Shown here: piece after piece, positions 19,401-22,400 of the stretch
Layout of the letters: every line of letters begins with the position of its first letter
Numbering within the stretch: the first letter of the stretch is position 1
Assembly: GCF_003018255.1 (NCBI RefSeq)
Contig: NZ_CP027440.1
Strand: one strand, 5' to 3'
Source of the DNA: Escherichia coli
GTDB taxonomy: Bacteria; Pseudomonadota; Gammaproteobacteria; Enterobacterales; Enterobacteriaceae
DNA length: 64,000 nucleotides
Position numbers: made by a program

Positions 19401-22400
19401 GGCTTTGAGATTTTCATCGCTCGTGTCTGCCAGCCCCTGTTGTAACTGGGCGGCAGCTTTCTCTAGTTCATTTTTGTCAACAAATTGCTGCGCAAGTTCC
19501 AAAGAAGCCAGCGCACCATAAGTATTTTTATTTTCAGCAGCAAATTTTTCCGCCGCCGGAATGCTATCCGGTTTGCCTTCGCTCACTGCGGTAACCGCAT
19601 TTTGATAGGCAAGAGAAGCGGAGCGTGCAGAATCAACCTGATGGCTGTTCCAGTAGCGCCAGCCAATTAGTGCGCCAACGCCCAAAATCACCCCAACAGC
19701 CAGTGCTTTGCCATTTTCAGCAAAAAAGCGTTTAACCGCTTCTACCTGGTCGTTTTCGTTCTCGTAAATTTCCACGCTGTCCTTCTCCTTCCTTAACCCA
19801 GTAACGTGCGCAAATGCGCGGCTACGCTATCCTGCGCAACTGCCGTTTGCTCACCAGAGCGCAAATCCTTCACTACTGCTGTGCCGTTAGCCACTTCAGA
19901 CTCACCCAGCACCACAGCAACGCGGGCACCCCATTTATCAGCACGGGCAAACTGTTTCTTAAAGTTGCCGCCGCCGTGGTTGGTCATCAGTTTCACGCCC
20001 GGTAATTCATCACGCAGACGCTCTGCTAATGCCATAGCCGCAGATTGTGTATCAGCACCTGAAGCCACCAGGTATATATCGACAACAGGATCGGCCTTAA
20101 ATTCCGGATTAACGGCCTGAACTAACAATACAAGACGTTCGAGGCCCATCGCAAAACCGACAGCCGGTGTTGCACGACCACCCAGTTGTTCCACCAGACC
20201 GTCATAACGACCGCCTGCACACACGGTGCCCTGGGAGCCGAGACTGTTAGTCACCCACTCGAAAACGGTACGGTTATAGTAATCCAGACCACGCACCAGA
20301 CGCTGGTTGACGGTGTAAGCGATCCCCGCGCTCTCAAGCAGTTTGCACAGACCGGCAAAATGCTCACGAGATTCCTCGTCCAGATAATCGCCTAATGCCG
20401 GAGCGTCGTTGAGAAGCACCTGCACTTCCGGATTTTTTGAATCGAGTACGCGCAACGGGTTAGTGTACATGCGGCGTTTGCAGTCTTCGTCCAGCTTTTC
20501 TTTATGCTGCTCAAGGAATGCCACCAGCGCATCGCGGTAATTCGCACGAGCTTCCAGCGAACCGATAGAGTTCAGCTCAAGAGTTACGTGCTCGGAAATA
20601 CCCAGCGCGCGCCACCAGCGGGCAGTGAGCATAATCAGTTCGGCGTCGATATCCGGACCTTGCAGACCGAAAACTTCGCAGCCCAACTGATGGAACTGAC
20701 GATAACGCCCTTTCTGCGGACGCTCGTGACGGAACATCGGCCCGATATACCACAGACGCTGTTCCTGATTGTACAGAAGACCATGCTCGATGCCGGCGCG
20801 TACACAGCCCGCCGTCCCTTCAGGGCGCAGAGTCAGGCTGTCGCCATTGCGATCCTCAAAGGTGTACATCTCTTTTTCAACCACGTCGGTGACTTCACCA
20901 ATCGCACGTTTGAATAGCGGGGTCTGCTCTACAATCGGCAAGCGGATTTCACTGTAACCGTAGCTGCCGAGCACGTTTTTCAGTGTGCCTTCAATGCGCT
21001 GCCAGATGGCCGTTTCGCCAGGCAGGTAATCGTTCATGCCGCGAATGGCTTGAATGTTTTTTGCCACGTTTATTCTCTTTCTGAATATAAAAATGAACCC
21101 TCAACGCTTCCCTCAATGTTTCGGGAGCCATGCGGGTTCAATCATACACGGGAAGCGAGGCGCTTCCCATCACGTTATTATTTTTCAACCTGCTGAACGT
21201 CAATTCGACGCGCTTCGTCCAGCTGACTGGCTTTCGCACGAATGCGCGCTTCCAGCTGATCGATCATATCGTTGTTGTCCAGACGGTCTTTGCGCACGCC
21301 ATCTTCATAGAGGCCGCTTTTCTTGTTGCCGCCGGTGACGCCGAGTGTAGAAACCAGCGCCTCACCAGGGCCATTCACCACGCAGCCGATAATCGAAACG
21401 TCCATCGGAGTGATGATATCTTCCAGGCGTTGCTCCAGCGCGTTAACCGTACCGATAACATCAAATTCCTGACGCGAACAGGTCGGGCAGGCGATGAAGT
21501 TGATCCCGCGCGAACGGATACGCAGCGATTTCAAAATATCGAAACCGACTTTGATCTCTTCGACCGGATCGGCCGCCAGCGATACGCGCAGCGTGTCGCC
21601 GATGCCTTCAGACAGCAGCAGACCTAAACCAATAGCGGATTTTACTGCCCCGCTACGCGCACCACCGGCTTCGGTGATCCCCAGATGCAGCGGCTGATCG
21701 ATTTGTTTTGCCAGCAAACGATAAGACTCAACAGCGAGGAAGACGTCAGACGCTTTCACGCTGACTTTGAACTGATCGAAGTTCAGGCGATCGAGATGAT
21801 CAACATGACGCATGGCAGATTCCAGCAACGCCTGCGGCGTCGGTTCGCCATACTTTTCTTGCAGATCTTTTTCCAACGATCCGGCATTAACGCCAATACG
21901 GATCGGAATGTTTTTATCGCGCGCACAGTCAACCACCATGCGAATACGCTCTTCATTACCGATATTGCCAGGGTTAATACGCAGACAATCGACGCCGTAT
22001 TCCGCTACTTTCAGCGCAATGCGATAGTCGAAGTGGATGTCAGCCACCAGCGGCACGTTAACCTGCTGTTTGATGAGTTTGAACGCTTCTGCCGCGTCCA
22101 TCGTCGGTACGGAGACACGGACGATATCAGCGCCAACACGTTCCAGCGCCTTGATTTGATTGACCGTTGCTTCGACGTCTGTCGTACGCGTATTGGTCAT
22201 GGACTGTACGGCGATGGGAGCACCATCGCCAATCGGCACATTCCCAACGTAAATACGTGTTGATTTTCTACGTTGAATTGGAGCCTGGTTATGCATGAAA
22301 AATCTCCCGCGTTACCCGTCTGTTACTGCGCCGGTGGTTGTTCGGCATTGAGGGTCAGACGCGCAACCTGGTTAGTTCTGATAAAACGACTCAGATCGAC

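Follow-up and report, generated by a model that had tools for sequence, protein, structure and literature searches.

What kind of locus is sroE, the sequence that fills the space between ispG and hisS: a small RNA gene in its own right, or a piece of DNA that serves the two genes on either side of it? The question is addressed here in a 64-kb stretch of an Escherichia coli genome (64,000 nucleotides, hereafter the window), in which all of the features described below lie on the minus strand. According to the ORF list, the spacer between the ispG stop codon and the GTG start codon of hisS measures 110 nt (21068..21177). It is preceded by the ispG CDS (21178..22296, with the TAA stop codon at 21180..21178), of whose mRNA SroE forms the tail, as placed by the ORF list, the K-12 annotation and 80 orthologous loci; ispG is also known as gcpE. 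On the other side, the hisS CDS (19793..21067) starts with its GTG at 21067, in agreement with both the ORF list and the K-12 annotation.

An earlier note, made from the sequence alone, had recognized the K-12 sroE in this spacer, and the alignment fully supports this identification. The sroE segment and its flanks are identical to K-12 MG1655 at 171 of 171 positions (100%), and the Rfam model RF00371 (sroE) matches 21087..21178 over its full length (positions 1-92 of 92), scoring 116.6 bits where the gathering score is 51, with an E-value of 1.8e-28 in one search and 1.4e-30 in another. In K-12, the ncRNA sroE (b4761) is annotated at 2640595..2640686, flanked by ispG and hisS (a window coordinate is the K-12 coordinate minus 2619508), and the published experimental 92-nt SroE sequence is identical to the stretch studied here. 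Sequence, neighbors, strand and 92-nt extent are the same, with no difference from the K-12 locus at the sequence level; the spacer is an already catalogued E. coli locus, and finding it is an ordinary re-discovery that brings nothing new as to identity. SroE was reportedly first described by Vogel in 2003. As annotated, SroE begins on the final base of the ispG stop codon, which is consistent with the label of 3'-UTR-derived RNA that it had been given from the sequence, and it ends in a U tract. The arrangement is also stable: in 80 orthologous Enterobacterales loci, one per species, gathered with the ispG protein as query, the order ispG-sroE-hisS is found in all 80, with sroE on the same strand as both genes, and hisS starts with GTG in every one of them.

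The two consecutive hairpins followed by a U tract that had been noticed on the minus strand are confirmed by folding. As minus-strand RNA, the whole spacer has a minimum free energy (MFE) of -41.6 kcal/mol, versus -24.2 +/- 3.7 kcal/mol for 200 dinucleotide shuffles, none of which folds equally well (0/200; z = -4.73). Both hairpins stand out when folded singly (z = -4.77 for hairpin 1 and -4.15 for hairpin 2), and both are recovered by an inverted-repeat search, as repeats I3 and I1, respectively. Hairpin 1 (21143..21174), which is further supported by the conservation of its arms, has the core GGGAAGCG-CCU-CGCUUCCC, where GGGAAGCG (21168..21161) pairs with CGCUUCCC (21157..21150) around the loop CCU (21160..21158). 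Hairpin 2 (21094..21140), which reaches -22.3 kcal/mol on its own, is closed by an outer stem of UGAACCC (21140..21134) with GGGUUCA (21100..21094) above which lies an imperfect inner stem, and it directly abuts the U tract UUUUUAU (21087..21093), where the Rfam model also ends. A 7-bp outer stem and an inner stem followed directly by UUUUUAU have the form of an intrinsic terminator, and hairpin 2 would thus be the terminator hairpin of transcripts reading in from rodZ and ispG. A consensus promoter and terminator scan of 20700..21700 returned no match: hairpin 2 escaped it because its loop (>8 nt) and its interior exceed the limits of the scanner, and the hisS promoter described below because its -35 is weak. 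The 3' arm of hairpin 1, CGCUUCCC, also pairs perfectly with a copy of GGGAAGCG inside hairpin 2 (repeat I2/D2), and a translation-coupled antiterminator based on this pairing was considered; it was rejected, since the terminator is still the MFE structure when the 13 nt lying under the terminating ribosome are masked, and since the I2 repeat is absent from most genera.

The earlier reading of this spacer as a small RNA stands as far as the identity with sroE is concerned, but it missed that the same spacer is the promoter and 5' UTR of hisS. In a blind promoter scan of the 80 loci, xTGGGA-18-TATGAT emerged as the one motif common to nearly all Enterobacteriaceae-type spacers, in the variants (A/T/C)TGGGA-18-TATGAT or TGGGAA-17-TATGAT, and from it a transcription start site (TSS) was predicted at about 21134 +/- 3. 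Published TSS data from two independent sources, looked up afterwards, gave 21133: SMRT-Cappable-seq assigns to hisS-yfgM-bamB a TSS at 2640641 (reverse), which is window position 21133, and the matches listed from the TSS table of Kim (2012) comprise this same base, as 2638663 in old coordinates, together with 2638974 and 2639941. The primary TSS of hisS, a G present in both data sets, directly follows the 5' arm of the terminator hairpin. Its -10 box, TATGAT (21141..21146), lies 7 nt upstream; it forms the linker separating hairpins 1 and 2 and is invariant in 43/43 aligned species. The -35 region (21164..21170), as placed from the scan of the 80 loci and the mapped TSS, would fall within the 5' arm of hairpin 1. 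Read as TGGGAA it stands 17 nt from the -10 box, read as ATGGGA 18 nt, and either way it resembles TTGACA weakly (3-4 of 6); in the form TGGGAA-17-TATGAT, the two elements make a correctly spaced sigma-70-type promoter for the mapped primary 5' end. The hisS promoter is said to have been the subject of a study by Eisenbeis and Parker in 1982.

From its own promoter, hisS has a 66-nt 5' UTR (21068..21133) that overlaps the 3' half of SroE and carries a Shine-Dalgarno-like AGAG (21078..21075); AGAGAAUAAAC-GUG is conserved at the hisS start in the aligned species. Deprived of the terminator 5' arm, this 5' UTR displays no significant structure in either of two foldings (z = -0.30 and 0.02). With the TSS as its first base, the RNA reaches -9.2 kcal/mol (z = 0.02), versus -22.3 kcal/mol with the 5' arm, and it leaves 15 unpaired nt from its last stem to its 3' end, 8 of which (GGGUUCA and the preceding A) precede the U tract. 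Because the hisS-promoter RNA starts past the 5' arm of the terminator, it is unable to form this terminator. Two further elements in this region were set aside. In some species, TTGACG-15-AATAAT or TTGACG-17-TAAnnT gives a good score as a promoter over the ispG stop codon, but this stretch is part of the coding sequence and neither of the TSS data sets supports it, and a His-rich 46-aa ORF starting 2 nt after the TSS has an AUG conserved only in Escherichia and Citrobacter and was therefore treated as due to chance.

Conservation follows the same elements. Across the 80 Enterobacterales species, the stems, the linker and the U tract barely change, and the loop of hairpin 1 and the interior of hairpin 2 are free to vary. 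In the 43 aligned species, the arms of hairpin 1 are nearly invariant around a free loop, with a compensatory G-C to U-A change in one species; the outer stem of hairpin 2 is conserved in 43/43 species, and a U5-7 tract is present in all of them except the two Superficieibacter (CAUAUUU). The interior of hairpin 2, by contrast, is anywhere between 6 and 161 nt long, and the 45 spacers in which it was counted hold 41 different sequences. In a covariation test on the stems, double changes were seen at 3 pairs and 90.5% of cells were paired; in stems this close to invariant, such covariation is too sparse for statistical proof of the RNA structure. In Pseudocitrobacter, the hairpin-1 arms are kept around a ~75-nt insertion, which supplies a new -35-like ATGACG, and an insertion found in hairpin 2 of Cedecea had no match in the E. 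coli genomes searched.

Published transcript maps bear on what happens at the two annotated ends of SroE. SMRT-Cappable-seq long reads span rodZ-ispG-hisS and ispG-hisS-yfgM, hence reading through the U tract, and the transcripts listed in that data set include no rodZ-ispG transcript ending at the SroE 3' end. Likewise, there is no 3' end at or near this position among the Term-seq ends listed (Adams, 2021), and no TSS at the annotated SroE 5' end (2638708, old coordinates) among the matches listed from Kim (2012). Since neither a Term-seq end nor a rodZ-ispG transcript ends there, termination at the U tract may be weak in vivo. Later RNA-seq studies did detect SroE, one of them in all growth conditions tested, and its expression is constitutive.

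The identity and fold of the spacer, its conservation across species, the mapped TSS and the read-through transcripts are all observed here or in published data, and they make it probable that sroE is better understood as a composite control region between two genes than as a free-standing sRNA gene. Transcripts from the rodZ and ispG promoters would pass the ispG stop codon and form hairpin 1, followed by hairpin 2 and the U tract, which together resemble an intrinsic terminator; the molecules that stop at the U tract and are cut near the stop codon would constitute the 92-nt SroE, and the others would continue into hisS. Here we infer the termination in vivo, the 5' processing at the stop codon, and a role for hairpin 1 as a stabilizing or insulating 3' structure. 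The same DNA is also the hisS promoter, with the -35 probably in the hairpin-1 5' arm, the linker as -10 and the start at 21133, and hisS mRNAs made from it, lacking the terminator 5' arm, would not be terminated at their own door. The 5' arm of hairpin 1 would then be held in place by its function as a -35 and the 3' arm by complementarity to it, the linker as a -10, and the outer stem of hairpin 2 and the U tract as a terminator, with the hairpin-1 loop and the hairpin-2 interior left free. Such double duty as promoter and terminator probably explains most of the conservation.

A composite control region would also account for a genetic observation, as SroE was scored as required in a Salmonella TraDIS screen: this requirement is explained if the promoter and 5' UTR of the essential hisS lie here. 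There is a lesson for annotation in this, since an essential gene, that of an aminoacyl-tRNA synthetase, has its mapped start site within the sRNA gene sroE, and both the strong conservation of sroE and its apparent essentiality in transposon screens are therefore explicable without a regulatory-RNA function. The usual stand-alone annotation of K-12 sroE as an sRNA gene omits this primary hisS TSS, 45 nt inside it, and claims about the sRNA that are based on sroE deletion, overexpression or conservation must allow for the overlapping hisS promoter. As for the term small regulatory RNA, it is, for SroE, a label with a putative function. More generally, the layout illustrates in a small space how a gene could be insulated from the transcription upstream of it and yet be partly fed by it.

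A regulatory function in trans is nonetheless compatible with the promoter and terminator reading, and several published observations point toward it. SroE might be a trans-acting, Hfq-associated, 3'-UTR-derived sRNA that pairs with mRNAs such as ligB, thereby linking the ispG operon to other genes: its layout, with an A/U-rich stretch, a terminator hairpin and a U tail, is that of an Hfq module, it is among the Hfq-associated sRNAs listed for nitrogen-starved E. coli, it was detected in every growth condition tested, and it gave a weak in vitro gel shift with the ligB mRNA. However, ligB was the only one of 10 predicted targets to be bound, and weakly so; the Hfq site entry in the published supplement is "N/A", with no mechanism on record, SroE overexpression was published as having no biofilm, motility, curli or fimbriae phenotype, and in Klebsiella pneumoniae, deletion of hfq changes SroE levels by only -1.75-fold, below the threshold of the study. 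In addition, expression of SroE is constitutive, and its sole invariant single-stranded stretch is the linker, already explained as the hisS -10, the loops being free to vary, so that neither a conserved accessible seed nor validated targets were found. We regard this trans-acting role as rather unlikely; it is unproven, and it is unneeded to explain the sequence.

SroE may also be compared with processed 3'-UTR-derived sRNAs such as CpxQ and SroC, which use the terminator of their mRNA. Like these, SroE sits between a stop codon and an intrinsic terminator of the operon, has a U tail after a hairpin, and begins at the stop codon with no TSS there among the matches listed. Unlike them, it has no validated target or conserved free seed and depends only weakly on Hfq, its terminator is leaky or unseen by Term-seq, and its body overlaps a promoter. 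Hairpin 1 and the linker are almost completely frozen across Enterobacteriaceae, maybe beyond what a promoter and a terminator need, and this is the reason to consider that a protein or RNA partner recognizes hairpin 1 or the GUGUAUGAU linker on ispG transcripts, or that hisS is under an operator-like control. This we find improbable; in the case of a partner, SroE would be a trans-regulator or a decoy coupling transcription of the isoprenoid operon to other genes.

The operator-like version can be put more precisely, the palindrome GGGAAGC-N5-GCTTCCC being then a DNA site through which a dimeric transcription factor would control the hisS promoter, and not an RNA hairpin. We know of no regulator for this palindrome. 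Its two arms flank a free 5-bp center in an inverted repeat (7-5-7) that spans about -36 to -18 of the mapped hisS promoter; both arms hardly vary, and covariation is nearly absent. Nevertheless, the insertion in Pseudocitrobacter, ~75 bp between two preserved arms, would destroy an operator but not the closing stem of an RNA, the one compensatory change mentioned above speaks for pairing, Pantoea has an unrelated GC-rich hairpin in its place, and the 64-kb window holds no second copy, all of which makes an operator very improbable.

Least tenable, and to our minds extremely improbable, is the cis-acting, T-box-like hisS leader or attenuator sensing tRNA-His or histidine (proposed by Barquist et al., 2013), for even though the element always lies immediately 5' of hisS, was scored as required in Salmonella TraDIS and has a terminator-like hairpin ~20 nt before the start codon, the reading is largely refuted for hisS-promoter transcripts, which start at 21133, downstream of hairpin 1 and of the terminator 5' arm, have neither and are unstructured, and it further meets with a region devoid of any T-box or other riboswitch match in Rfam even at E <= 1, with a hairpin-2 interior, the expected place of the sensor, that has no conserved sequence, and with an alternative E. 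coli pairing, I2, that most genera lack and that, even with the first 13 nt masked, does not outcompete the terminator. sroE does share with T-box and other aminoacyl-tRNA synthetase leaders, such as the hisS T-box of Firmicutes or the thrS operator, a structured element directly upstream of a synthetase gene, but it differs from them by the lack of a T-box match, by a hisS TSS located past the structures and by the unstructured leader that results.

The composite control region favored here instead belongs with intercistronic terminators overlapped by a downstream promoter: a GC-rich stem and a U tract follow ispG, and sigma-70-type -10 and -35 elements with a mapped TSS let the downstream transcript start inside the hairpin. 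In Serratia, Pantoea and other species, this overlap is read from the sequence and not from TSS data. A near-consensus TTGAAY-16/18-TATAAT, with the -10 ending 35-38 nt before the GTG, is present in Serratia, Chimaeribacter and Affinibrenneria; it lies inside hairpin 2 in the first two, Affinibrenneria being without a clear hairpin 2. The layout of a promoter inside a terminator thus seems to recur, with a different sequence, in Serratia-like and Pantoea-like genomes, and in Pantoea, TATGAT is kept inside the hairpin apex.

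The ispG-hisS spacer occupies 21068..21177 on the minus strand (110 nt), exactly the interval singled out in the earlier note, between the ispG stop codon TAA (21180..21178; ORF 21178..22296) upstream and the hisS GTG start (21067; ORF 19793..21067) downstream. Its RNA has a minimum free energy of -41.6 kcal/mol, versus -24.2 +/- 3.7 in dinucleotide shuffles (z = -4.73; 0 of 200 shuffles as stable). Hairpin 1 (21174..21143, core GGGAAGCG-CCU-CGCUUCCC) is followed on the same strand by hairpin 2, whose outer stem pairs UGAACCC (21140..21134) with GGGUUCA (21100..21094), with an imperfect inner stem besides, and then directly by the U tract UUUUUAU (21093..21087). 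Both hairpins are significant when folded singly (z = -4.77 and -4.15, respectively) and both are recovered by an inverted-repeat search of the spacer, which bears out the two hairpins and U tract first read from the sequence. A simple terminator scan did not pick up hairpin 2 in the spacer, because its interior exceeds the scanner's limit.

The Rfam sroE model (RF00371, gathering score 51) aligns end to end with 21087..21178 (minus strand), at 116.6 bits and E = 1.8e-28. An alignment with K-12 MG1655, as the earlier note had suggested, shows 100% identity over the 171 bases around the spacer; K-12 carries the ncRNA gene sroE (b4761, 2640595..2640686) at this very place, between ispG (b2515) and hisS (b2514), and the 92-nt SroE of a published accessibility screen is the identical string. 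The locus, present once in 5425 of 5426 complete E. coli genomes, is already known, and both its location and its name had been given correctly. What the present analysis adds is that this annotated sRNA overlaps the mapped promoter of an essential gene.

With IspG as anchor, 80 loci were collected, each from a different Enterobacterales species, and a blind sigma-70 scan of these yielded (A/T/C)TGGGA-18-TATGAT (equivalently TGGGAA-17-TATGAT) as the single promoter-like motif common to nearly all Enterobacteriaceae-type spacers. Its -35 element lies within the 5' arm of hairpin 1 and its -10, TATGAT (21146..21141), in the invariant linker between the hairpins, both on the minus strand; from these a start near 21134 was predicted before published TSS data were consulted. 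The same -10 was reportedly described by Eisenbeis and Parker in their 1982 paper on the hisS promoter. A hisS-yfgM-bamB transcript found by SMRT-Cappable-seq has its TSS at K-12 position 2640641 (reverse). The rows listed from Kim et al. (2012) include a TSS at 2638663 in older coordinates, with upstream sequence AAATAATAACGTGATGGGAAGCGCCTCGCTTCCCGTGTATGATTGAACCCG; a shift of +1978, derived from where that table places sroE, converts it to 2640641, so that the two data sets agree to the base.

This TSS corresponds to 21133, the G right after UGAACCC, the 5' arm of the terminator stem. With this arm included (21140..21087), the RNA folds at -22.3 kcal/mol and its stem runs right up to the U tract. 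Without it, the RNA that begins at the TSS (21133..21087) reaches -9.2 kcal/mol (z = 0.02) and leaves 8 unpaired bases between the last stem and the U tract, or 15 with the U tract counted; extending the 5' UTR into hisS gives an equally unremarkable structure (z = -0.30). Since the TSS lies past the 5' arm and the RNA started there lacks a significant fold, transcripts from the hisS promoter cannot form the terminator.

Transcription also arrives from the rodZ and ispG promoters: SMRT-Cappable-seq recovered rodZ-ispG-hisS and ispG-hisS-yfgM transcripts, and reported no rodZ-ispG species whose end falls at the spacer. The Term-seq tables of Adams et al. (2021) hold no 3' end at 264058x-264060x, where the SroE terminator lies, and do hold 3' ends internal to hisS and to ispG. 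The terminator is therefore at least leaky, and the SroE 3' end is not dominant in these data. The strong ends within hisS lie roughly 141 and 292 nt into the CDS, at 20926 and 20775 on the minus strand (K-12 2640434 and 2640283), the former being scored as not Rho-dependent. At the annotated SroE 5' end, no TSS appears among the rows listed from Kim et al. (2012), which fits 5' processing at the ispG stop codon. The same rows assign to hisS, with a 377-nt UTR, a weak TSS (4 reads) inside ispG at old position 2638974 (21444, minus strand), which might also supply transcripts that run through SroE.

Taken together, the spacer is very likely a composite module combining an ispG terminator with the hisS promoter. 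In hairpin 1, the 5' arm would be frozen, like the linker, as a promoter element, and the 3' arm by the need to remain complementary to the 5' arm, while the outer stem of hairpin 2 and the U tract would be kept as terminator of read-in transcription. With its TSS just inside hairpin 2, hisS would escape this terminator, and SroE would be the terminated, 5'-trimmed tail of the ispG mRNA.

ispG is followed by hisS in all 80 loci, with spacers of 13 to 241 nt, and hisS starts with GTG in all 80 species, downstream of a weak Shine-Dalgarno-like AGAG (start codon at 21067..21065 here). Across 43 aligned Enterobacteriaceae-type spacers, TGGGAAGC-N5-GCTTCCCGTGTATGATTGAACCCGC, GGGTTCA plus T5-7, and AGAGAAYAAAC-GTG are near-invariant. 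The 5-nt loop of hairpin 1 varies freely among such spacers, as does the interior of hairpin 2, which is 6 to 161 nt long and has 41 different sequences in 45 spacers. In a covariation test, 90.5% of cells were paired and double changes occurred in just 3 pairs, a weak formal signal because the stems are frozen. Two Pseudocitrobacter species (loci L008 and L009; spacers about 3620..3804) carry a structured insertion of ~75 nt in the hairpin-1 loop, and two Cedecea-like genomes (L039 and L046; about 3623..3863) one of ~125-160 nt in hairpin 2, the closing arms being retained in each case. These insertions look like small mobile repeats; a search of E. coli genomes with the Cedecea-like one gave no match. 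In E. coli, the hairpin-2 interior contains a 12-nt tandem repeat (21098..21121; RNA sense AAACAUUGAGGG / AAGCGUUGAGGG) and, at 21105..21112, a second copy of the hairpin-1 GGGAAGCG (21161..21168), which suggests that the E. coli/Citrobacter interior grew by local duplication.

Among 20 representative genera, RF00371 scores above threshold in 11, and below it in Pantoea, Erwinia, Serratia, Buttiauxella and insertion-bearing spacers. Pantoea spacers have an unrelated GC-rich hairpin 1 and a terminator; several Erwinia and Rosenbergiella spacers (L050, L064, L066, L067, L072) measure 53-62 nt with a single hairpin, and that of Pantoea sp. 1.19 (L069, 3623..3635) is down to 13 nt. Some Enterobacterales therefore lack the two-hairpin module. 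The same promoter/terminator logic may be built from other sequences: a near-consensus TTGAAY-18-TATAAT lies within hairpin 2 in Serratia and Chimaeribacter, TTGAAG-16-TATAAT stands equally far from hisS in Affinibrenneria, which lacks a clear hairpin 2, and Pantoea conserves TATGAT at a hairpin apex.

A reading of the hairpin-1 palindrome as a DNA operator is unlikely in view of the spacers that carry insertions and of those of Pantoea. In Salmonella TraDIS, Barquist et al. (2013) scored the element as 'required', and they proposed a T-box-like hisS leader. The T-box proposal is contradicted by the hisS TSS at 21133, by the absence of any T-box or riboswitch hit in the region at E <= 1 and by the unconserved hairpin-2 interior. 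The Salmonella requirement is explained if the essential hisS promoter and 5' UTR lie here, and functional claims based on sroE conservation or 'essentiality' should be tempered given this overlap. Three further candidates were dropped: a translation-coupled antiterminator on the 8-nt repeat GGGAAGCG, whose alternative pairing showed no antiterminator behaviour in folding tests; a promoter overlapping the ispG stop codon, which had no TSS support; and a non-conserved His-rich 46-codon ORF (20991..21131, minus strand; 6 His) with its AUG 2 nt after the hisS TSS. This ORF runs across the hisS start in another frame and is probably due to chance, since no genus other than Escherichia and Citrobacter retains its AUG.

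In the literature consulted, there is little to support a trans-acting role of SroE. Its status in the INTERFACE screen is 'Uncharacterized', and published accessibility-screen data record neither an Hfq site nor a mechanism. Only 1 of 10 predicted targets (ligB) was gel-shifted, weakly, and overexpression gave no phenotype in biofilm, motility, curli or fimbriae. Expression is constant across nutrient conditions, SroE levels change 1.75-fold in K. pneumoniae without hfq, and SroE is listed among Hfq-associated sRNAs in nitrogen-starved cells.

Other Rfam matches in the window are ryfA RNA (34341..34645, plus strand, 312.5 bits), adjoined on that strand by IS128 RNA (34001..34209, 258.3 bits); the iscR stability element iscRS (41878..41987, minus strand, 136.5 bits, full model); and nucleoid-associated noncoding RNA 4 (naRNA4/CssrE; 53992..54070, minus strand), at 72.7 bits versus a gathering score of 59.5.
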